Positions 1 through 12,315 are shown, numbered from the stretch's first letter. The stretch is DNA of 13,514 nucleotides from Candidatus Thorarchaeota archaeon (GCA_016839445.1 JAEOUG010000119.1:1-13514), one strand, 5' to 3'. Numbers and translations are program-made. The notes: generated by a model from the letters alone, not told the origin.

Positions 1-149
1 CCTTCCGGCAGGTGCAGTACCTGGTGCTGAGGGCCCAGCGGTATTCATCGTATGACCTGGTGGACCTGCGGCTCTCAGCCATCAACCTCTACGCAGGCCA
101 GGAGACCCAGGTGGAGGACTTCGAGAGCGGGGACGGGACGCTGGATGGA
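1..149 (+). repeat. Constant-region repeat copy 1 (cut by window edge)
   Basis: Aligns without gaps to 1480-1628 with 16 mismatches in 149 nt by manual count; the first 43 nt are identical. Confidence 0.97.
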
Positions 150-893
150 TCATTTGGGAGTGTTGACGACCAGGCGGAACAGAAAACCGATGGTACTCTG
201 TCAACTGCTACTGATTCCATAGAAATCTATTGGACTGGTTGGTGGCCCACAGCGCACTTTGAAGTGCACAAGGCAATCGACGATGAAACGTCGCTGGATT
301 TCCACCTATGTGTTGATATTCTTGGGTCAGCGTCCATACTTGAGATTGACTACACACTGTACGGATATGAGGAACTGAGTGAGGAAGAGGCCGAACAGGT
401 TACTGATGAGATCGAGCAGAGTGGCGGTATTCCTCTCGGTGAGGTGGTATCGACCATGGCCCAATTTCTCACGCTCTATTGGCTAGGATTGGAGGTCTTT
501 GCTAGGATATGCACACCAGCGACGGAAACATTCTTCTGGGTAGCTCTCGGAGGCTTCATTGCATGCTGTTTCATGTACTTCGCATTCTTGGTTTGGAGCG
601 TTCAGCAGTCTGATGCTCCACGATGGCTCGCCGCTCTCACCTTCCTTACTTCCGCCATTGTGTTTCTGTGGCGGAGACACCAAAACAGCAATCTTGCCTC
701 AGCTATAGTCGAGAAGTGTCCACTGACAACTAGGATTGGCCACATGTTCAGTGACGTATGGGGGCTCTCGGCGTTTCGAGACAAGTGGGACAACGTCCTT
801 GCACGAACTCACTATGGCCTTGCGCTGGTGAGTCTCGTTTTGTGCGTCGCAGCCTTTTTCTTCTTCTCTGCAATCATGACTGGAGTGCTATGA
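3..893 (+). CDS. Cassette 1: 5'-partial polymorphic membrane protein (constant repeat-encoded segment, YWTGWWP domain, variable ~4-TM C-terminus)
   Basis: Frame is open from the window edge (TTC CGG CAG GTG...) to TGA 891-893, so the GTG at 12 is probably internal. The first 49 codons are shared with cassette 2. Then come YWTGWWP (228-248), FHLCVDILG (300-326), an acidic stretch and four hydrophobic helices. Confidence 0.8.
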   Translation, partial: FRQVQYLVLRAQRYSSYDLVDLRLSAINLYAGQETQVEDFESGDGTLDGSFGSVDDQAEQKTDGTLSTATDSIEIYWTGWWPTAHFEVHKAIDDETSLDFHLCVDILGSASILEIDYTLYGYEELSEEEAEQVTDEIEQSGGIPLGEVVSTMAQFLTLYWLGLEVFARICTPATETFFWVALGGFIACCFMYFAFLVWSVQQSDAPRWLAALTFLTSAIVFLWRRHQNSNLASAIVEKCPLTTRIGHMFSDVWGLSAFRDKWDNVLARTHYGLALVSLVLCVAAFFFFSAIMTGVL

Positions 894-967: not shown

Positions 968-1279
968 GTGATTCTCGAAGTCACTGTGATCTTGGTCGTC
1001 ATAACAGAGGCTCTGCTCTTGTGGTTTCTGAAACGAGTCCGCAAGACCAGAGGCCTCACAGATTCATCCTGGTACTCGAGGAATGTCTGCAGTATGTTTC
1101 GGTCTGTCCTCTATCATGCACTCGCAGGCACCGCCGTGTGGTGTGGCTGCGTGCTCTGGCCGGTTCTCCTCATCCCGCAGTATGGCCTTTCGTTCTTGTT
1201 GGGAGTCCTGTGGTTGCTTCCAATAGCTTCAGTCGGGGGTGCACTAGATGGCTGGGACTTCGCCCGCCGAAAGGAGTAG
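968..1279 (+). CDS. Small 3-TM membrane protein, candidate cognate partner/immunity protein of cassette 1
   Basis: 103 aa, GTG start with strong SD, three hydrophobic segments, basic loop after TM1 (KRVRKTR), ends RRKE. Function is inferred from position only. Confidence 0.72.
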   Translation: MILEVTVILVVITEALLLWFLKRVRKTRGLTDSSWYSRNVCSMFRSVLYHALAGTAVWCGCVLWPVLLIPQYGLSFLLGVLWLLPIASVGGALDGWDFARRKE

Positions 1280-2279
1280 TCCTGCCTGCCAGATCGAGGC
1301 CACAGAAGCCCCTCTTCGGAGCGTTCTAGGTCGCTTCACGGCCAATGTGGGTAGCTCTTGGGTACTCACAAGTCGCTGTCGAACTGACAGGATCTACCGG
1401 CACGCAGGCCGCAACAACCACAAAATCAAGGACTCTGGAGGGACCCTTGCCTCAGGGAGCCTGGGAGAGGTGGCCAACCCCTTCCGGCAGGTGCAGTACC
1501 TGGTGCTGAGGGCCCAGCGGTACTCCGCCTACGACCTGGTGGACCTCAGGCTCTCCGCCATCAACCTCTACGCGGGCCAGGAGACCGAGGTGGAGAGCTT
1601 TGAGAGCGGAGACGGGACGGTGGAGGGAGAGACCGGAGCAGCAGAAGGGGAAGTGGACAACCATCTTTCTGATGCCAGTAGTATGATGGTGTTGTACTGG
1701 ACAGGATGGTGGCCGCAGCTCCATTTCGTGGCGTCATCGGAATCCAGAGGTACATTGTTCCATCTAAAGGTCGATCTCCTTGGTAACTCAGAGATCGTCC
1801 AGGCGGACACGTTTGGAGCAGAAAGCCAGGACTTCGAGAATGCGCTACTCTTCGGAGAGTGGGCATTTGTCGTGGGCCTGCAGCTATTTGGTCTGTATCT
1901 TGTCTGCGCTGCGGCAGAGAGAATACCTGCAACTGGTTGGTGGGGAGTAGCAGCAGTCATACTGACGATGGTTCTCATCGCGGCCTACGTATGGATCACG
2001 GCATGTAGACTCGTTGAGAATGGGATCAAGAGTGCTGGGGGCATGTCCTTCTGGTTTTTGCAGCTCTCAGTTGCTATGATTTGTGTTGCTGCTGGTGTCA
2101 AGAGAGTGGGAAGTGTGGCGGCTTCTGCGATCATGTACTTCCTCAAACTGATAATGCATGTCCCTGAGGGTGTGGAAATCAAGAAGGGGGGAATCTGGAC
2201 TGCTCTCGTCTTCGTAACGATGGCTGCGGTCTTCTTCTTCTACTATGGGCATTTTTATGGACTCAGCACGAAGGTGTGA
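1248..2279 (+). CDS. Cassette 2: probable orphan C-terminal module (homology begins ~1420), constant segment plus YWTGWWP domain plus variable 4-5 TM C-terminus
   Basis: 343-aa open frame. KIKDS...GSLGEVANPFRQVQYLVLRAQRY...FESGDGT is shared with the other copies; YWTGWWP 1695-1715; FHLKVDLLG 1758-1784. The first ~57 codons match nothing in the window, so the true start, or whether it is translated at all, is uncertain. A GGGGGTG does lie 6 nt before ATG 1248. Confidence 0.75.
   Translation: MAGTSPAERSSPACQIEATEAPLRSVLGRFTANVGSSWVLTSRCRTDRIYRHAGRNNHKIKDSGGTLASGSLGEVANPFRQVQYLVLRAQRYSAYDLVDLRLSAINLYAGQETEVESFESGDGTVEGETGAAEGEVDNHLSDASSMMVLYWTGWWPQLHFVASSESRGTLFHLKVDLLGNSEIVQADTFGAESQDFENALLFGEWAFVVGLQLFGLYLVCAAAERIPATGWWGVAAVILTMVLIAAYVWITACRLVENGIKSAGGMSFWFLQLSVAMICVAAGVKRVGSVAASAIMYFLKLIMHVPEGVEIKKGGIWTALVFVTMAAVFFFYYGHFYGLSTKV
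1420..1628 (+). repeat. Constant-region repeat copy 2 (overlaps both other copies)
   Basis: 1420-1497 matches 2986-3063, including an exact 30-mer GGGAGCCTGGGAGAGGTGGCCAACCCCTTC at 1455-1484 and 3021-3050. 1480-1628 matches 1-149. Confidence 0.97.
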
Positions 2280-2306: not shown

Positions 2307-2714
2307 GTGCTGCAAGCGATCGTGCCCTTGATTTCTCTGCTAGTGGGCGTTGCCCTGATGCTGGCTTCCCAACTCTACATCGATGCTGTTGTTGCTGTAG
2401 TGCAGAACAAGGAAATCAAAGGACCGGCGGTAACTCAAGGCAAGGGTCGGTCCCCCATGACCGGAGAGACCTTCTCGGGCGCCTCGTTTGGGTTCTATGC
2501 ACGTAGCAGAGCGTGGTGGTACGTATCCTGGACAGTCATGGTTGGCTCGGGTCTCATTCTTACAGAAGTGACCATCTTCGTCTTGATGATGGAGTTCCTG
2601 ACGATTGTCCCGATGACCGAGTGGCTTCTGGGCCTCATTCTCCCAACATTCCTCGCAGTCATCGTGCTTGAATCAGCCATCAGCTCATTGAGAGAGCTCA
2701 GGCGTCATGAGTGA
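2307..2714 (+). CDS. Small 3-TM membrane protein, candidate cognate partner/immunity protein of cassette 2
   Basis: 135 aa, GTG start with SD, 27 nt after the cassette 2 stop, three hydrophobic segments, ends RRHE. Confidence 0.78.
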   Translation: MLQAIVPLISLLVGVALMLASQLYIDAVVAVVQNKEIKGPAVTQGKGRSPMTGETFSGASFGFYARSRAWWYVSWTVMVGSGLILTEVTIFVLMMEFLTIVPMTEWLLGLILPTFLAVIVLESAISSLRELRRHE

Positions 2715-2834: not shown

Positions 2835-3065
2835 GTGTTGGAGGGAAATCTAAGTAGACTTGCCTTCAAGGGGGGAATACCCGTGATTGCGCAGTACCAC
2901 ACAAAGGTCCGCCTTTTGCCCAGCGACATCTACGGGAGTTTCTTCCGGATCGGTGAGCTGAAGGTGGAGGATGGTGGGGTGATCTACAAGATCAAGGACA
3001 GTGAGAGTACCATCGCCAGTGGGAGCCTGGGAGAGGTGGCCAACCCCTTCAGGCAGGCGCAGTGA
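2835..3065 (+). pseudogene. Truncated constant-region fragment (cassette 3 remnant)
   Basis: Encodes YKIKDSESTIASGSLGEVANPFRQAQ-stop, homologous to HKIKDSGGTLASGSLGEVANPFRQVQY. TGA 3063-3065 replaces the Tyr codon and no homology follows. The 5' boundary is uncertain. Confidence 0.75.
2986..3063 (+). repeat. Constant-region repeat copy 3 (truncated)
   Basis: Ungapped match to 1420-1497 with a 30-nt exact core. Confidence 0.95.
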
Positions 3066-3162
3066 GTCGTATTCAGTTCGTGAAGGTGCTCCACACGCGC
3101 TTGACATTGCACCGAATACGATATATGCCGAGGTGGGAATGGATGTGGGCAAGGGAAGAACT

Positions 3163-3396
3163 ATGGGCAAGTCCGAGATAGATGAACGGGGCAGGGTCAC
3201 CATACCAAAAGAAGTCAGAGAGAAGGCTGGTCTGAAGGCAGGCGACAAGCTCTTGCTGACTGCTGACAACAAGCGAGTCATCATGGAGAAGGTGGTCAAC
3301 CTTGACAGATTCATTCAGGAACTAAAAGGCTGTATCACAGTCCAGGGCGATTTGGACCCTTTGAGGCTCAAAGAGATCTGGAGAACTGCAGAATGA
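3163..3396 (+). CDS. vapB: AbrB/MazE/SpoVT-family DNA-binding antitoxin (VapB-like)
   Basis: MGKSEIDERGRVTIPKEVREKAGLKAGDKL is the swapped-hairpin signature; ATGA overlap with the downstream PIN gene. Start could alternatively be ATG 3139. Confidence 0.9.
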   Translation: MGKSEIDERGRVTIPKEVREKAGLKAGDKLLLTADNKRVIMEKVVNLDRFIQELKGCITVQGDLDPLRLKEIWRTAE

Positions 3397-3797
3397 TGAT
3401 CGTGGACTCGAACATATGGGCGTACTATTTCGACAAGAGCCTCGGTGAACACGAGAAGGTGGTCAAGCCGCTAGAAACCGCATTGAAGAAAGAACGAGTT
3501 GCTGTGAATGCGACTATTGTCGTGGAAACCCTTCACTATCTCGTGAAGCGACTCGGACCTATTGTGGGTGGCGACAAGGGCAGGGTGTTCACAGGACTGG
3601 GATTCCCAATCTATCCCCTAGATGTCGAAACGCTTCGAGTGACGAACCAGAAGCTGTGTGACTTCACCCACCTTGGAATTGGAGGACGAGACGCATCGAT
3701 TCTGGCCACGATGGAGCTCGAAAACCTAGCGCAGATCATGACTCATGACCAGGCATTCAAGAGGATCCCAGAACTTGACGTAATTGATCCAGTCTAA
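3393..3797 (+). CDS. vapC: PIN-domain ribonuclease toxin, VapC family
   Basis: 134 aa with PIN acidic residues in IVDSN, IVVE, GRDASI and THDQAF; translationally coupled to the AbrB gene. Confidence 0.92.
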   Translation: MMIVDSNIWAYYFDKSLGEHEKVVKPLETALKKERVAVNATIVVETLHYLVKRLGPIVGGDKGRVFTGLGFPIYPLDVETLRVTNQKLCDFTHLGIGGRDASILATMELENLAQIMTHDQAFKRIPELDVIDPV

Positions 3798-5489: not shown

Positions 5490-8400
5490 ATGAGCGTGCG
5501 GACTAGTGGGAACATCCATTGGAAGGGTGTGATACTAGTCGCAATACTCCTCCTTCTCAACCTGGGACCTGTGCCTTCGGTCCAGCCAGGAGCAAGTCCT
5601 GATGATCTCTCTCCGCGGAATTCGTCGGAGGACGTAATCACCCCGGCCGCCGAACCCATCCAAATCTGGGAAACAGCGCTCGAGGGACTCCTTCCCTGTG
5701 CTATCTCAGCGGCCGACCTTACTGGTGATGGGAAGCTCGAGATGGTTCTGCGAACTGACGATGGGGTGCATTGCATCGATTCCTTGGGCCAGATTGTGTG
5801 GTCATATGACATGCAGAGCTACATTGAGGAGATGACATTTCCCATTGCCGACTTCAACAGAGACAACCTACTGGAAGTATTGGTCACAGATGTCAGCAGG
5901 GACGAGATCGTAATCCTTGACGGGCAGGGAAACGTGGTCTCGAGTACCCACTTCACGCAAGTCTGGGCAAACGCCCCATGCGTGCTGGATGTCAATGGCG
6001 ACTCGTGGCTAGAGGCCATTGTGGCAACCGGACAGCAGTTCACATGCATGGACTCACGGGGTTGGTTGCGGTGGGCAACCGAGATCGATGTCGGACCGTT
6101 TGAATCTGAGATAACGTCAAACATCTGTGCGGCGGACCTGGATCACGATGGCAGCGCGGAGATTATCGCGACCGTTGACAGTGGACACCTGGTCTGCCTA
6201 GACTCAGCGACTGGTGACCTAGTCTGGTATAGAGCCGTCACTGGAGTGAGCTCTATCTCAGCCATTACGGTGGCCGATATTGAAGGGAACGACAACCTTG
6301 AGATTCTGGTGTCTACCCTTGAGAGATATGTCTACTGCATTGATTCGGATGGCTTGATCTCCTGGTACTACAGACCGCCTTTGGCACTCATCGCACAGCC
6401 GTGTGTTGTTGACATCGACAACAGCGGAGACCAAGAAGTGCTGCTCTCTGGAAGTGGAGGGGGCGTCTACTGCTTGAGTTCCAGCGGGGCACTCGAATGG
6501 GCCTTCTCCACCTCCGCGGACCTTGGATCCCCGTCTGTTCTTGACGTGGATGGCAACGGTTACCTAGAGTGTATTGTCCCAGGGACTCGGAGCTATGTAC
6601 TAAGCCATCTCGGGGGCGCGAAGTGGACCATCGACTTTGGTGCCAGAGGATCGCCATGTGTCGCCGACATAGACCTTGATGGCAGAACAGAACTCGTCAT
6701 CTGCGACGAGGACACGGTCAGGTGCTACCGGATCAGCGAAACCCCTCAGAACCCAGGAGCGTATCCTTGGACGCCAAAGACTGCACAGGCAGAAATTCGT
6801 AGGAGAGGAGTCTATTCTGATGGCGATTCTGACTTACTGACTGATAACCACGAACGCCTTTCCGGGAGTTTCCCTGACTCATCTGATTCAGACATGGATT
6901 CCGTAGACGACTTCTCTGAGTTCGCTACATCAGGATGCCCTAGGGGCGGAGGGATTCTTTCTACTCCCCTGGGTATCTTGGACTGGGATTCCGGCGGCGG
7001 CGATGATGCCGATGCGTGCATAGCAGACATCGGGGGGGACGGACTTCAGGAGCTCGTAATGCGGTCTGACCGCGGCCGCATCACCGTTACAGATCGGCGC
7101 TTCATCGAGGAGTGGGAGTATGATCTGTTGATGCAAGACATCGGGCCAATCTGCGTTTTTGACGCTGAGGGTGATGGGCATCTTGAAACGGTCTTTGGTA
7201 GAGAAACAGGATGGATCACGTGTCTAGACCACAGCGGTGTTCTGAGTTGGCACATCTTTGTTGGGGGACGGTCAATCTATATGCCATGCGTCGTCGATCT
7301 CCAAGGCGACGGCCTCATGGAGATAGTCTGTGTGACGAGTCTGGGCGGTGTGGTATGTATTGACGGCGAGGGTGAGTTGCTCTGGAGCGATAGCATCGGT
7401 CACGAACCGACGGAGCCCGTAGCCGCAGACATAGACCTGGACGGAGATATCGAAATCCTTGTGGGCTCGGAAGATGGCGGGATTTTCTGTTTCAGCGATT
7501 CGGGGGAACTTGAGTGGAGCCGCACGAACGAAGACACATCTGTGAGGCTCTCGATTACAGAGGAACTGGGCGGCGACTTCAGAATCATGGCGGGCACAAG
7601 TTCGGGCCAGATTTGGTACATGGACAACACTGGAACCCCACTGTGGACATTCGAGGGAGACATACCCTGTTGTGCTCCCTGCGCTATCGATCTGAATCGC
7701 GACGAGGCTGCGGAACTATGTTTCAGTTCCGGGAGCAAGATCTGGTGTCTGGATTCATCGGGGATTCCGATCTGGAACTTCACGGCGGATTCATCTGTGG
7801 GTCCAACCGTGACGATTCTCGATGTCGACTGTGACGACACCATGGAGGTCCTCTTCGGCACAAGCGGAGGCTTTGTCTACTGCTTGGACGATGTGGGTTC
7901 TTTGGAGTGGATATTCAGGACCTCTGGAGGAGTCTGCAGCCTGACTGCAGGTGACACAGACGGCAACGGAATCTCTGACATATTGGCCGGGACCTCAACT
8001 GGTTCGTATCATACGTTCATTGTGTCAGGAGTAAGGCCGGAAGAGAGAACCTACGCGTGGCCCCCAATGAACTCCAGAGGTAACGGTTGGCGCTCCGGAT
8101 GGTTCGACGACCATGACGGAGACACCCTGACAACAGGATTCGAACTCTGCGCAGGTTCTAATCACACGAGCATGGATGGGGACACAGACTCCATAGATGA
8201 CAAGAACGAGTATCTGCAGTTGACCAATCCAATGAGGGATGATGTGCCTCCAGGGGAAATTGACGACCTCTCTCTTGCTTCTGTGAATGGAACAGTCGCC
8301 ACGATCTCGTGGACAGCGACAGGAGAGAACCAGTTGCTTGGAAGAGCGACATCCTACGTAGTCGTTTTTGCGCTGGTTCCTGAGGTACTCGCAAATGTGT

Positions 8401-8741
8401 TCCTGAACGACATCTACAACCAGAGCTGGATTCCCCTCAATCCCGGTGACACTGAGGAGAGGGCAGTTGATGGCCTTATCCCCGGCTCGAGGTACGCATT
8501 TGCGATTCGCGCGGTCGATGAGCAGGGTAATGAGGGACCGCTCTCCAATGTCCTAACGTTCTCCACCTCAGGAGGTGGGGGAGGGGGCTTGATAACCCCG
8601 GCTAATGTGGCCGCATGGAGTGTTTCTGCAGTCTCTCTAGCAGTTATCGCAGTGTTCACAAGGAAATCATACAGAGCTCTAAGACGAGAACAAGAGCCCG
8701 AGGACGAATCTGATGTCCCAGACCTTGAGGACCTGCTTTAG
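5490..8741 (+). CDS. Secreted, C-terminally anchored protein: two FG-GAP/VCBS-like (PQQ-like) beta-propellers, Asp-rich TSP3-like Ca-binding motifs, FN3-like domain, TM helix, acidic tail
   Basis: N-terminal hydrophobic signal (GVILVAILLLLNL); ~16 repeats of aDlDgDG..Eiv......v.ClD..G...W; DGDSDLLTD and DHDGDTLTT motifs; PPGEIDDL...ISWTA...DGLIPGSRYAFAIRAVDEQGNEGPLSN (FN3); TM near 8604-8657. GGAGG 5484-5488 better fits GTG 5496 as the start. Confidence 0.9.
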   Translation: MSVRTSGNIHWKGVILVAILLLLNLGPVPSVQPGASPDDLSPRNSSEDVITPAAEPIQIWETALEGLLPCAISAADLTGDGKLEMVLRTDDGVHCIDSLGQIVWSYDMQSYIEEMTFPIADFNRDNLLEVLVTDVSRDEIVILDGQGNVVSSTHFTQVWANAPCVLDVNGDSWLEAIVATGQQFTCMDSRGWLRWATEIDVGPFESEITSNICAADLDHDGSAEIIATVDSGHLVCLDSATGDLVWYRAVTGVSSISAITVADIEGNDNLEILVSTLERYVYCIDSDGLISWYYRPPLALIAQPCVVDIDNSGDQEVLLSGSGGGVYCLSSSGALEWAFSTSADLGSPSVLDVDGNGYLECIVPGTRSYVLSHLGGAKWTIDFGARGSPCVADIDLDGRTELVICDEDTVRCYRISETPQNPGAYPWTPKTAQAEIRRRGVYSDGDSDLLTDNHERLSGSFPDSSDSDMDSVDDFSEFATSGCPRGGGILSTPLGILDWDSGGGDDADACIADIGGDGLQELVMRSDRGRITVTDRRFIEEWEYDLLMQDIGPICVFDAEGDGHLETVFGRETGWITCLDHSGVLSWHIFVGGRSIYMPCVVDLQGDGLMEIVCVTSLGGVVCIDGEGELLWSDSIGHEPTEPVAADIDLDGDIEILVGSEDGGIFCFSDSGELEWSRTNEDTSVRLSITEELGGDFRIMAGTSSGQIWYMDNTGTPLWTFEGDIPCCAPCAIDLNRDEAAELCFSSGSKIWCLDSSGIPIWNFTADSSVGPTVTILDVDCDDTMEVLFGTSGGFVYCLDDVGSLEWIFRTSGGVCSLTAGDTDGNGISDILAGTSTGSYHTFIVSGVRPEERTYAWPPMNSRGNGWRSGWFDDHDGDTLTTGFELCAGSNHTSMDGDTDSIDDKNEYLQLTNPMRDDVPPGEIDDLSLASVNGTVATISWTATGENQLLGRATSYVVVFALVPEVLANVFLNDIYNQSWIPLNPGDTEERAVDGLIPGSRYAFAIRAVDEQGNEGPLSNVLTFSTSGGGGGGLITPANVAAWSVSAVSLAVIAVFTRKSYRALRREQEPEDESDVPDLEDLL

Positions 8742-9072: not shown

Positions 9073-10137
9073 TTATTCCCGCAGCCGCCGCACCAAGACA
9101 ACAGCCTCACCCAGTGCCAGCACACCAAGAATCATCGAGAGTCCAATGAGGCCAAGGTTCAGAATCGCGGCGGATTGGGAACCAGGACCTCCTTCTAGGG
9201 CTGCCGTCAATGCTCCAAGATTGTGGGTCATTATTGCAGTATAGTCCGATAGACCTGAGAAGAAGACTGCTCTCCACCAGACGAGAGTGCCACCGTAATC
9301 ATCAACCAGCTGGTACGCAAACTCCCCGGCTGTTTGCAGTCTGGCAACGTCCGAACCAAGGATGAGAGAGATGGACCCGTTGAGAAAGGCATTCTGAACA
9401 TCGATGAGTTCGTCACCGGAGATTGTCTGGCCCTCGTTGATCAGAACCGCCTCGACGCCAATGCCGAAGGCTTCAGCCACGTAGGCCTCGGCCGGGAACA
9501 CGACAACAGCATTCATGGAGGAGAAGTGGTACTCATCATCAGCCTCCAGAATCAGCTCCTGCAGGTCATCGAGCTGGTTCAGGAAGTGCCCGAAATTGCT
9601 GTTCCACACGTCAGATAGCGCAGCATTCAGGGTTGTCAGGGCCGCGCGAGTTGCGTTGGCAATGGCAACGGCGTTCGAGGGTAGAAGCCACCACGCGTGT
9701 GGATTCCCATCATGGTCGTGGTCCTGAGCAGTCGTGTGGGTGTCTTCGCCTGGGAAGGGTGACAGCTCTGCGCCGTAATCCTCGTAGTTCTCAAGTGCTC
9801 CGGGGTCGTGGAGTGTGATGAAAGGAGTTGCGGTCTGGTTCGCGAGGGCTTCTTCCCAGTCGAAGTGCCCAGTGAAGACCAGAAGATCCGCACTCTCTGC
9901 AATCGCAATCACTTGAGGAGTCACGGTGAAAGAGTGAGGCTCGAATCCCTCAGAGAGGAGGATAGAGGTCTCGACATAGGCCCCACCAACTTCCGAGACA
10001 ATCCCCGACAACGGAGCAACTGAAGTCGCCAACAGGAATGAAGGCGACGTCTGACCTTCAACACGGGTCGTTGCTCCTGACAGCAAGAGTGGTAGCAGGA
10101 AGGCCACGAGAACAAGGGCCGAACGACGGTTCCTCAT
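9073..10137 (-). CDS. Metal ABC transporter substrate-binding protein, ZnuA/TroA (cluster A-I) family, with C-terminal TM anchor
   Basis: Signal peptide MRNRRSALVLVAFLL, GFEPHSFTVTP, ADLLVFTG, His-rich loop HTTAQDHDHDG, NPHAWW, DY.AIM.HNL, C-terminal hydrophobic helix. ATG at 10137 preferred over 10149. Confidence 0.9.
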   Translation of the reverse strand: MRNRRSALVLVAFLLPLLLSGATTRVEGQTSPSFLLATSVAPLSGIVSEVGGAYVETSILLSEGFEPHSFTVTPQVIAIAESADLLVFTGHFDWEEALANQTATPFITLHDPGALENYEDYGAELSPFPGEDTHTTAQDHDHDGNPHAWWLLPSNAVAIANATRAALTTLNAALSDVWNSNFGHFLNQLDDLQELILEADDEYHFSSMNAVVVFPAEAYVAEAFGIGVEAVLINEGQTISGDELIDVQNAFLNGSISLILGSDVARLQTAGEFAYQLVDDYGGTLVWWRAVFFSGLSDYTAIMTHNLGALTAALEGGPGSQSAAILNLGLIGLSMILGVLALGEAVVLVRRLRE

Positions 10138-10139
10138 GA

Positions 10140-10167
10140 TTATTAACATTCATAGGGATGTTAATAA
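10140..10167. promoter_or_regulatory. Palindromic operator in divergent promoter, candidate NikR site
   Basis: Perfect 10-bp inverted repeat TTATTAACAT-N8-ATGTTAATAA; the right arm is also TATA-like on both strands. Confidence 0.85.
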
Positions 10168-10201
10168 GTACAGAGGTCCAACCCTACTCGGATGTGTCGT
10201 A

Positions 10202-10597
10202 ATGCCGGTTGTAGCCGTTTCGATGCAGGACAATGATCTAGGAGAACTGGAGCGCCTCAAATACGAGGGAGGTTTCTCCAACAGGTCGGAAGTAGTCCGC
10301 CATGCACTTCAGCTCCTCCTCGCAGAGCATCGATCGCTGGAAGACATCAGAGGAGAGATGACTGCTGTTCTAACAGTGAGCTTCGCAGAAGACGGAAAGG
10401 ACCGGAGCTGCAGTCGTGTCCAACACGACTACAATCATCTGATATCAGCCATGATGCATGCACACACCATAGGAGGGGGCTGCATCGAGGTCTTGGTCAC
10501 GAGAGGCGATGCTGATGATGTGCGTGCCTTTCTGAGAAAGCTGCGCTCGCAGAAGAGGGTGGAGAGGGTGAGAGTAGAACTATTCGGAGAGGATTGA
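10202..10597 (+). CDS. nikR: NikR-family metal-responsive regulator (RHH plus ACT-like metal-binding domain)
   Basis: MPVVAVSM...GFSNRSEVVRHAL ribbon-helix-helix; QH...HAH.....CIE matches the NikR His76/His87/His89/Cys95 ligand pattern. Confidence 0.88.
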   Translation: MPVVAVSMQDNDLGELERLKYEGGFSNRSEVVRHALQLLLAEHRSLEDIRGEMTAVLTVSFAEDGKDRSCSRVQHDYNHLISAMMHAHTIGGGCIEVLVTRGDADDVRAFLRKLRSQKRVERVRVELFGED

Positions 10598-10598
10598 C

Positions 10599-11393
10599 AT
10601 GAACCTTCTAGAAGCAGAAGATCTTGCAGTAAGATACCCGAACGGGACATGGGCTCTGCACAATGTAACATTCAGCATCGAGGCCCCCAGCTTCACCGCA
10701 GTAATCGGCCCCAACGGATCAGGGAAGAGCACGCTCCTGCGGACCCTGCTCGGGCTAATCGAGCCTGCAAGGGGACACAGTGGTCTGATGGGGTATGACT
10801 CGGTTCGCCAGAAGTCCAAGATTCGCAAACTGGTCCGGTATGTCCCTCAGAGGGAGGGGATTGCAGCCAACATCCCTCTGAAGGCCATGGATATTGTGCT
10901 GATGGGTCGACTCCTGAAGAAGGCACCTCCAAGAATTGCCTCGTCCAAGGACAGGGACTTGGCCCTGGACGCACTGAAGCAAGTGGATATGCTTGATTTG
11001 AAAGACAGGTCCTTCTCCGAACTCTCGGGCGGCCAGAAGCAGAGGGTCTTGGTTGCTCGAGCTCTTGCAGGAGAGGGACCCGTCTTGATGCTTGACGAGC
11101 CGCTGGCAGGCACTGATGCTCACAGCCAGGACCTGATAGTTGAGGTTCTCGGGAAGTACCACAATGAGCACGATGTCAGCATCATTATGGTTACCCATGA
11201 CCTCAATCCAATACACACCTATGTCGAGGACGTTCTCTTGCTGAAGAACACACTCGTTGGTATCGGCACACCGTGTGATGTGATGGACATTGAGATGCTG
11301 AAGAGAGTCTACGGACCCTCAGCAAGGATAGTGGAGTACGCAGGTCACAGATACTGCATAACAAGAGATTCAGGATTTGATCGCCATGATTGA
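10599..11393 (+). CDS. Metal ABC transporter ATP-binding protein, ZnuC/MntA family
   Basis: Walker A GPNGSGKST, YVPQ Q-loop, LSGGQKQRV signature, LMLDEP Walker B, VTHD switch. Confidence 0.95.
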   Translation: MNLLEAEDLAVRYPNGTWALHNVTFSIEAPSFTAVIGPNGSGKSTLLRTLLGLIEPARGHSGLMGYDSVRQKSKIRKLVRYVPQREGIAANIPLKAMDIVLMGRLLKKAPPRIASSKDRDLALDALKQVDMLDLKDRSFSELSGGQKQRVLVARALAGEGPVLMLDEPLAGTDAHSQDLIVEVLGKYHNEHDVSIIMVTHDLNPIHTYVEDVLLLKNTLVGIGTPCDVMDIEMLKRVYGPSARIVEYAGHRYCITRDSGFDRHD

Positions 11394-12315
11394 CATCATC
11401 ACATTCATCTTGCAGACTCCGTTTCTCCAGAGAGCGATAATCGGAGCTATTCTTATTGCGGCAGTCGCTGCGACAAGCGGTACATTCCTTGTTTACCGAG
11501 GTCTCTCCTTCATGACCTCTGGGGTGGCCCACGCAGCCCTAGGTGGCGCAGCGCTAGGTCTCTTCTTGGAGGACAGCGGTATCGCCCCTTGGTTCGACCC
11601 TGTGCTAGGAGCACTTCTCTTTGCAGTTCTAGTCGCCATCATCACAGGATACGCGGGGGAGAGTGGAATGGCAGAGAAGATGGAAGTGGCGGTCGGGGTC
11701 TCGTTTGCGCTCTCTATGAGCTTGGCAGTCTTCCTGATGTACTACATTCCACCTGCGGACACTCTGATCATCTGGGGATACCTAGTTGGAGACCTTCTAC
11801 TCCTAACAACCTCCAACATCGTCACTCTGGGTCTTGTGACGCTAGTCTTGTTGATTGTCTCGATCATCTTTGGAAAGGAGTTCATCTACGTCAGCGTGGA
11901 TATGGAGGGGTCAATGGCTCACGGTATGAACGCACGGGCGTACCATTACCTCATGTTGATCACAGCGGCCTTGGCAATCACGCTGGCTACAAAGGCAGTA
12001 GGAGCGATTCTGGTGTACGCGATTCTGGTAGCACCGGCCGCAGCCTCAAACGAGTTGCTGAAGTCAGTGAGAGCTGTTGTGATATCCGTCTTCGTCATTG
12101 CACTAGGGACAGAGCTTGTTGGCATCGCCACTTCGTTCGTAATCCGCGTATCGCCCAGTGCAGTTGCGGGTGTTCTCGCGGCTCTATCGTATGTAGTGGC
12201 GTTGACAATCAAGAGAAGGAGAATGATGGTTGACGAGGATACAATCCCCGATGCAGAACCTCCTCTCGTGGGTCAAACGATCAGGGAAAGCCAGCATGAC
12301 CACCACGACCACTGA
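11386..12315 (+). CDS. Metal ABC transporter permease, ZnuB/ABC-3 family, His-rich C-terminus
   Basis: FLQRA, GTFLVYRGLSFM..GVAHAALGG, YLVGDLL, KAVGAILV.A.LVAPAAA; overlaps the ATPase stop; ends QHDHHDH. Confidence 0.95.
   Translation: MIDIITFILQTPFLQRAIIGAILIAAVAATSGTFLVYRGLSFMTSGVAHAALGGAALGLFLEDSGIAPWFDPVLGALLFAVLVAIITGYAGESGMAEKMEVAVGVSFALSMSLAVFLMYYIPPADTLIIWGYLVGDLLLLTTSNIVTLGLVTLVLLIVSIIFGKEFIYVSVDMEGSMAHGMNARAYHYLMLITAALAITLATKAVGAILVYAILVAPAAASNELLKSVRAVVISVFVIALGTELVGIATSFVIRVSPSAVAGVLAALSYVVALTIKRRRMMVDEDTIPDAEPPLVGQTIRESQHDHHDH

Follow-up and report, generated by a model that had tools for sequence, protein, structure and literature searches.

A 13,514-nucleotide stretch of Candidatus Thorarchaeota archaeon DNA (GCA_016839445.1, JAEOUG010000119.1:1-13514; the whole stretch is hereafter called the window) carries repeated copies of a coding block that run into very different C-terminal tips, which raises the question of why conservation stops so sharply within one reading frame and whether block and tip have the same history. 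We propose that the window probably belongs to a polymorphic-toxin-like cassette system, in which the block acts as a recombination arm, within a surface-protein family that is unannotated in Thorarchaeota. Two block copies, W1 and W2, were matched without gaps at 89% DNA identity by a repeat finder (1–149 versus 1480–1628), and a further direct match of 82% was reported between 1420–1497 and 2986–3063. Compared codon by codon, W1 and W2 differ at 14 of 49 positions, nine of them synonymous and five non-synonymous. A maximum chi-square scan of the codon-guided W1–W2 alignment placed the single best breakpoint after 149/1628, with an identity of 0.89 to its left and 0.42 to its right (chi-square 101, compared with a maximum of 13 in 200 shuffles). 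Over the 179 aligned codons of the tips, protein identity is 32% and DNA identity 43%. G/C-ending codons account for 42/49 (W1) and 46/49 (W2) within the block, versus 11/30 and 9/20 directly after it. A first-pass annotation of the window, made from the sequence alone, had claimed this repeat with its codon differences, its abrupt edge and its G/C-ending codon counts, all of which were reproduced, the figures exactly.

The same edge appears in a wider sample. We assembled a protein profile of nine cassettes representing nine separate 50%-identity clusters; they have nearly the same block and very different tips. Mean pairwise protein identity amounts to 0.73–0.92 over the 40 residues preceding the junction and to 0.12–0.26 over the first 30 columns past it, rises to 0.38–0.53 in two motif islands and stays at 0.11–0.21 across most of the membrane part. 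The two further tiers that had been described beyond the repeat, one conserved mainly at the protein level and one a barely alignable transmembrane region, are therefore real. At the junction itself, identity falls from 0.83 to 0.26 inside ten residues; checked for gradual decay in this larger sample, the alignment shows a step and not a slope.

A search among longer proteins yielded a full-length relative, P0001 (1333 residues), and an exhaustive search returned 67 relatives at E ≤ 0.001. Within these representative proteins, the junction lies at most 130 residues from the N-terminus in 43 and at 131–600 in 14, some of the short relatives possibly being cut by contig ends; the rest comprise five full-length proteins, two without the block and three block-only fragments. 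The five full-length relatives (1273–1741 residues) align over their whole length, with bodies that are alike and that diverge past the junction. Searching with the full-length alignment pointed at six loci, four from Candidatus Thorarchaeota and two from archaeal metagenome-assembled genomes (MAGs); in a pattern search built from the cassette alignment against species-representative genomes, 111 patterns matched and no relative was confirmed.

Related genomes harbor a full-length gene together with two to four truncated cassettes. In locus L002, the main gene for 1319 residues (L2main) comes first, then cassettes L2a and L2b, and each of the three has a small open reading frame (ORF) directly behind it. 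At locus L001, a small ORF and a block remnant of 73 nt are found downstream of the main gene (L1main, 1294 residues); ~4.2 kb upstream of the main-gene start, the opposite strand carries four cassettes (L1a to L1d), each with a small ORF. Cassettes retain 37–103 residues of the block; their upstream cut points vary, and all blocks end at the same Asp-Gly junction. Judged from gene order, truncated cassettes beside full-length genes are the layout expected of a homology arm. Shared arms cover 146–361 nt of coding sequence overall. L1main and L1a possess inverted arms of 361 nt with 86% identity (L001 4834–5194 and 12183–12543, 6,988 nt apart), and their breakpoint falls at the same junction as that of W1 and W2 (identity 0.90 before, 0.40 after). 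Recombination across these inverted arms would swap tips by inverting the intervening segment. The L001 genes for glycyl-tRNA synthetase and 3-hydroxy-3-methylglutaryl-coenzyme A (HMG-CoA) reductase sit between the arms. Window and L001 copies of these genes are 74% (synthetase) and 84% (reductase) identical, which marks the two as related Thorarchaeota; the window array is convergent with the synthetase gene, and the L001 main gene follows the synthetase in the same direction.

To compare the histories of block and tip, trees were calculated for 10 cassettes of four genomes, the block tree being based on 46 residues. Genome labels change three times in the block tree, which is the minimum possible and was equalled in only 2 of 200 shuffles, and W1 groups with W2 at a support of 98/88. 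The tip tree displays six genome-label changes, no better than shuffled labels, and pairs cassettes across genomes, namely L1a with L2a (100/99) and W1 with L1c (92/87). In approximately unbiased (AU) tests, the tips rejected a W1+W2 clade (p = 0.028) and an L1main+L1a+L1c clade (p = 5e-7), and the blocks rejected L1a+L2a (p = 0.018) and W1+L1c (p = 2e-4), for groups picked after the trees were seen and for tips that have long branches. Block and tip trees are thus incongruent: blocks sort by genome, tips do not, and the swapped groupings are rejected, which bears out the separate histories suspected in the first-pass annotation. Its further suggestion that the tips were probably horizontally exchanged goes beyond the data. 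As judged from the L1a and L2a tips (48% protein and 57% DNA identity), shared tip types are old; horizontal exchange and long-kept polymorphism are for this reason indistinguishable.

Composition sets the block apart from its surroundings. G/C content at third codon positions (GC3) is 0.55–0.70 in nine other genes of the window and 0.54 and 0.57 in the two tips, so that the block is the compositional outlier and the tips are ordinary; tip GC3 is likewise host-like in each related genome. The compositional step had been taken as a mark of foreign tips, a sign that we rejected because tip GC3 matches that of host genes and the anomaly resides in the block. In all nine tip-bearing genes with DNA, including both main genes of ~1,300 codons, the richest 30-codon window is located on the 44-codon block or at most ~25 codons upstream of it, with a peak GC3 of 0.77–1.0 versus gene means of 0.40–0.64. 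The peaks of L1main and L1a start 23 and 21 codons upstream, respectively, overlapping only the first residues of the block. Block GC3 reaches 0.75–1.0 across three loci in genomes of 43%, 48% and 54% GC. Paralogous domain-end blocks carrying the same motif have a GC3 of 0.43 and 0.52 in L1main, compared with 0.75 at its constant block, and of 0.68 in L2main, compared with 0.84. When all long ORFs are considered, a GC3 ≥ 0.86 is reached by 0.09% of the 44-codon windows in L001 and by 0.02% of those in L002. Our preferred reading is that the peak represents a footprint of repeated recombination via GC-biased gene conversion, because prokaryotic genes that recombine more tend to have higher GC3 according to the portion of Lassalle et al. 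2015 (PMC4450053) used here; codon-use selection on the block may be an alternative cause. As proposed for the block, the genes treated in that portion have higher GC3 where recombination is more frequent. The signal described there amounts to a few percent when genes are compared with each other, whereas the peak found here is intragenic, spans ~45–60 codons at a GC3 of 0.75–1.0 and is situated at the arm.

The window contains two cassettes and a stub, which within the same best explanation would probably be the 3′ end of a cassette array, arranged as follows.

1–149, plus strand: first copy of the constant block (W1), formed by the final strands of a beta-sandwich; the contig starts inside it, frame from base 3
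150–893, plus strand: tip 1, part of the open-ended ORF 3–893, with its stop codon at 891–893
968–1279, plus strand: small membrane-protein gene A, the candidate cognate partner of tip 1; 103 residues, three hydrophobic segments
1248–1419, plus strand: open frame upstream of cassette 2, part of ORF 1248–2279; its ATG overlaps the end of gene A
1420–1628, plus strand: constant block copy 2 (W2), 70 codons from 1419; richest 30-codon window with GC3 30/30
1629–2279, plus strand: tip 2, predicted helix, four-stranded sheet and five helices; four to five hydrophobic segments
2307–2714, plus strand: small membrane-protein gene B, the candidate cognate partner of tip 2; 135 residues, three hydrophobic segments
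2926–3065, plus strand: block remnant W3, the earlier part of the block with a TGA end and no tip; 82% identical to 1420–1497
3139–3797: AbrB/MazE-type antitoxin gene and PIN-domain gene, directly after W3

The W1 block aligns with residues about 1038–1086 of P0001, and W1 matches the C-terminus of this protein with 34% identity over 96% of its length. Tip 1 comprises, in order, an acidic linker, a W-T-G-W-W-P motif, a V-D-x-L-G motif and a hydrophobic helical region. The window is probably a complete contig. It opens inside the block, five bases short of where a 30-nt stretch ends that is identical in copies 2 and 3 (1455–1484 and 3021–3050), and the assembly seems to be broken at the block repeat; with such a start, W1 may be the end of a full-length gene or of another cassette. 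The frame at 1248–1418, which may be translated, is without homology to full-length proteins; it is similar to the N-terminus of one other cassette-like protein, P0009, whose tip differs. GGAGG-like stretches precede both small-gene starts (A and B). W3 matches P0001-type sequence and related loci at 63–67% identity (tblastn). The 73-nt remnant of L001 (13623–13695), positioned just past the small ORF of the main gene, parallels W3 at the end of the window array and is 94% complementary to the L1c block over 53 nt.

A Pfam scan covered 15 window ORFs. The cassette proteins of the window, small protein A among them, have no Pfam, NCBIfam or PADLOC family, and for small protein B the sole Pfam match lies below the cut-off, and a word-based search returned only the protein itself. 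The AbrB/MazE-type and PIN genes overlap by four bases and form a VapBC-like pair. Farther downstream, 5490–8741 encodes a second large surface protein of 1083 residues, unrelated to the cassette family, with FG-GAP/beta-propeller repeats, a fibronectin type III domain, a run of Gly and a hydrophobic anchor at the C-terminus, and 9073–12315 holds a metal-uptake cluster comprising a ZnuA-like binding protein (minus strand) followed by a NikR-like regulator, an ATP-binding cassette (ABC) ATPase and an ABC-3 permease (plus strand).

All 10 complete cassettes are followed by a small ORF with one to three hydrophobic segments, and the small proteins are mostly unrelated to one another. Tip 1 has its nearest tip in L1c (113 bits, 29%), which together with L1a–L2a (251 bits, 48%) makes up the two most similar tip pairs. 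These pairs also have the two most similar small-ORF pairs (36 bits for W1–L1c and 69 bits for L1a–L2a), the ORF after L1c being the best match of gene A among nine other small ORFs, although their blocks are only 40% (L1a–L2a) and 46% (W1–L1c) identical. This suggests that tip and small gene form a paired module. A predicted complex of tip 2 with small protein B scored 0.00 with a poorly folded partner, and is evidence neither way.

Full-length proteins are composed of a hydrophobic leader, a conserved N-terminal (alpha/beta) domain and three to five domains of ~220 residues, succeeded by a C-terminal module with a predicted helix, a small four-stranded sheet and four to five membrane helices. 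The last ~220-residue sandwich domain ends with the constant block, and the same motif ends the internal copies; the junction motif, Asp-Gly-Thr/Ser/Ala with an almost invariant Asp-Gly, lies at the domain boundary. In a model of the first 700 residues (mean predicted local distance difference test score (pLDDT) 62.9, block means 68–89 over most of the sandwich), the sandwich matches a GH16 laminarinase, the CBM2 of a phage Dit protein, VIP36 and a legume-lectin-like domain at E-values of 5e-6 to 9e-5 and target template-modelling (TM) scores of 0.44–0.57. The body domains are accordingly modelled as lectin-like (concanavalin-A-type) beta-sandwiches. W2 was modelled with AlphaFold2 from a 60-row alignment (mean pLDDT 76.9, block means 71–95 over residues 81–220). 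Its tip has four to five segments hydrophobic enough to span a membrane, and near-invariant Trp, Trp-Pro and Asp-Gly occur in at least 90% of the 60 aligned rows; all tips are versions of one membrane-helix scaffold. The modelled helix bundle is compatible with a pore former or with a plain anchor.

No PDB or viral-model (BFVD) fold matched the tip 2 model at E ≤ 0.001, and claudin and sarcospan were rejected as fold relatives of the tip, with TM-scores ≤ 0.25 or similarity in composition only. Profile and sequence searches of the full-length protein against PDB gave no match, and no Pfam family was assigned to full-length P0001 and P0020. Look-alikes in a protein atlas offered nothing usable for the tip and, for the N-terminal domain, only CHAT at 0.79, below the trustworthy level. 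In this domain, a His-Gly follows one hydrophobic strand and an Ala-Cys follows a second (P0001 ~105–150, L002 main protein ~104–145), in a region where the model is of low confidence; we take this pattern to be reminiscent of caspase-type (clan CD) peptidases. By this resemblance, the protein might cut its own tip free at the invariant Asp-Gly through a caspase-like N-terminal domain. Locus L004 encodes a mini family member of 379 residues (7160–8296; 382 codons, open frame from 7151), in which the conserved N-terminal domain leads directly to a hydrophobic tail without lectin-like domains. At L003, on a low-coverage MAG contig, the full-length gene contains in-frame stops at 319–321 (TAA), 1360–1362 (TAA) and 3529–3531 (TAG), one of which stands where relatives have Ser; it is a pseudogene or contains sequencing errors, with no sign of recoding. 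The family was not found described in literature on Thorarchaeota or Asgard archaea and polymorphic toxins, supplements aside, and the portion of PMC6393860 consulted from this literature held nothing on the cassettes.

Taken as a polymorphic-toxin-like system, the truncated cassettes by the main gene would each supply a block stub, an alternative tip and its own small gene, and homologous recombination inside the block would exchange the tip-plus-partner module within one genome and between strains. Exchange in the block would leave blocks concerted by genome and tip types common to several genomes. The GC3 peak would then most simply record either repeated recombination at the block through GC-biased gene conversion or selection acting on the arm. 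As to function, we tentatively consider a membrane-acting effector with a membrane immunity protein, an assignment that falls somewhat short of likely.

Measured against polymorphic toxins as defined by Zhang et al. 2012, the five full-length proteins show a conserved body with a variable C-terminal-most module (0.83 to 0.26 at the junction), and orphan cassettes share the end of the constant region (W2 and W3 in the window, four plus a remnant in L001, two in L002). In the sections of PMC3482391 and PMC4927057 considered, the constant-region stub of an orphan module lets the cassette recombine into the main gene. Contact-dependent growth inhibition (CDI; cdiA-CT/cdiI) and Rhs (rhs-CT/rhsI) systems, as these sections present them, resemble the family in having a constant surface body with a variable C-terminal module starting from a fixed short motif, a small cognate gene directly downstream (here a candidate partner recognized from sequence alone) and arrays of truncated cassettes whose piece of the constant region could recombine with the main gene. 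Unlike CDI and Rhs, the host is archaeal, and the tips are variants of one membrane-helix scaffold, not unrelated soluble enzymes. The family falls outside CDI, with no CdiB, haemagglutinin repeats or VENN found by Pfam on P0001, P0020 and the window ORFs; VENN is the demarcation in CDI, whereas the junction here is Asp-Gly-Thr/Ser. It falls outside Rhs as well, there being no RHS/YD Pfam match and no DPxGL motif, and a body of concanavalin-A-like sandwiches.

The closest archaeal parallel that we compared is VARTIG of Thermococcales (Makarova et al. 2021, PMC8416519), described in the portion of that paper used as a large secreted multi-domain protein with a hypervariable C-terminal region, to whose C-terminus shorter genes align and in which the similarity of the variable part departs from the species tree. 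Its authors state there that VARTIG is organised like polymorphic toxin systems, leave the function open and report no counterpart outside Thermococcales. Archaeal origin, a large protein with a variable C-terminus, shorter genes aligning to it and a similarity not ordered by genome are thus common to both. Unlike VARTIG, with its sorting signal and its immunoglobulin (Ig) domains in arCOG07710-type proteins, the present family combines concanavalin-A-like sandwiches with a membrane tip of several helices and occurs in a different phylum; Pfam identified no Ig family, and the relatives found come from Thorarchaeota or other archaeal MAGs. Neither a diversity-generating retroelement nor a shufflon accounts for the variation: the 15 window ORFs include no reverse transcriptase and the tips differ throughout, not only at adenines, and no recombinase is encoded among the window ORFs and the arms are 146–361 nt of coding sequence, not short repeats, although L001 does have inverted arms. 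No transposase or integrase was observed between the cassettes.

Pore-forming colicins with their membrane immunity proteins, and Proteus IdsD/IdsE, are specificity contests in which a helical module that inserts into the membrane faces a small multi-pass membrane protein from the neighbouring gene. The likeness of the tips to these systems is an analogy only, the tip having no sequence or fold match in our searches.

Several findings weigh against a polymorphic-toxin-like exchange system. The tips are all variants of a single scaffold; searches of Pfam, NCBIfam, PADLOC, PDB sequences and PDB/viral folds recognised no toxin, immunity or defence family, and there is no evident machinery for delivery. 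Since the frames of the cassettes are open and include potential start codons, the cassettes could be independent short genes. Similarity of tips and of small ORFs is not significantly correlated over 45 pairs (Spearman 0.16, Mantel p = 0.13), a weak overall correlation owed to most pairs being at noise level, and the coincidence of the two top pairs was noticed post hoc. Of the four AU tests, two reach only marginal significance (p = 0.028 and 0.018), with groups chosen post hoc. Codon identity of blocks at shared residues is already 267/470 = 0.57 between genomes, whose blocks are unable to convert each other, and three L002 pairs show no excess over this baseline (0.52–0.65, p 0.47–0.68), so that selection and bias may explain them. 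W1 and W2 carry nine synonymous differences. Finally, no recombinant or tip-swapped allele was seen, in DNA from only three informative genomes.

The strongest rival keeps the recombination architecture and differs in function: tip and small protein would constitute a non-toxic specificity pair that serves self/non-self recognition, adhesion or partner choice as a lock and key in the membrane, with the lectin-like domains binding neighbour surfaces. We regard this as possible though unlikely. It gains from the single conserved tip scaffold, with its near-invariant Trp, Trp-Pro and Asp-Gly, in place of unrelated toxin folds, from a variable part made of membrane helices, from lectin-like domains suggestive of surface binding and from the lack of a recognised toxin family in Pfam, NCBIfam and PADLOC. 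A pore-forming effector with a membrane immunity protein would look identical in sequence, however, and the single membrane scaffold fits either pair about equally well; moreover, the small proteins are mostly unrelated mutually, as is typical of immunity proteins according to the part of PMC3482391 cited.

An improbable alternative dispenses with exchange altogether, the cassettes being tandem paralogues that diverged in place, with the block under purifying selection and biased codons and the tips relaxed or diversifying. The between-genome baseline of 0.57, which the L002 copies do not exceed, and the nine synonymous differences between the window blocks are in line with it. The high baseline follows from the strong codon bias of the block, and the 89% identity of the window blocks is by this measure largely protein conservation plus extreme codon bias. 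Cassettes retain only 37–103 of ~220 sandwich residues, however, so no fold is left to conserve, and block and tip trees are incongruent. At identical residues, W1 and W2 use the same codon in 34/43 cases in the block versus 16/50 in the tip (p = 8e-6), and L1main and L1a in 73/83 versus 17/50 (p = 2e-10), the latter pair sharing a 361-nt arm at 86% identity, yet having saturated tips. Both blocks exceed the baseline, W1–W2 with 32/41 (p = 0.008) and L1main–L1a with 28/31 (p = 1e-4). Concerted evolution is hence clear in L001 and moderate in the window, and L002 is at baseline. The first-pass annotation had proposed that the block is homogenised by recombination or gene conversion and serves as a homology arm. 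Incongruent trees and stubs sharing one junction partly support the arm; homogenisation stands in part, as the two window blocks are not freshly homogenised and L002 displays no excess.

A very improbable further option is that the GC3 peak and block conservation reflect a second function in the same DNA, an RNA structure or an opposite-strand gene. RNA structure was rejected by a shuffle fold test, in which 1440–1640 has z = -0.19 and 81 of 200 shuffles fold as well, and by the consensus fold of eight blocks (-5.5 kcal/mol, with an unfavourable covariation term). W2, L1a, L1c and L2main do have antisense ORFs of 71–91 residues that run across the block in the codon-aligned frame, but these ORFs differ in start and end points and were judged a by-product of G/C-ending codons, this frame being open automatically because antisense stops there need sense codons ending in A. 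That strain variants were stitched in tandem into an assembly artefact, as the contig start inside the block could hint, is scarcely credible, since the independently assembled L001 and L002 have the same layout with different tips and small genes and the copies differ throughout their tips.

In its widest form, which we consider decidedly speculative, our preferred recombination reading would describe an Asgard system for identity or conflict built on a new protein family: the surface protein, studded with lectin-like domains, would have a membrane-embedded tip that is exchanged together with its cognate small membrane protein, as one module, by homologous recombination at a ~150-nt GC-enriched arm, in L001 (361-nt arms, 86%, 7 kb apart) by a large inversion flipping the glycyl-tRNA synthetase and HMG-CoA reductase genes, with the GC3 peak as a footprint of GC-biased conversion at the gene scale. 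In practical terms, the block repeat breaks assemblies, and gene callers report orphan short proteins that are really cassette fragments. The localised GC3 peak in three genomes of differing base composition offers a test bed for recombination-driven GC in archaea. Classical polymorphic toxin systems are rare in archaea, as stated in the part of PMC3482391 considered. If true, the reading proposed here would provide a testable case of cell-to-cell conflict or self-recognition, from an unannotated family, in the archaeal lineage closest to eukaryotes.

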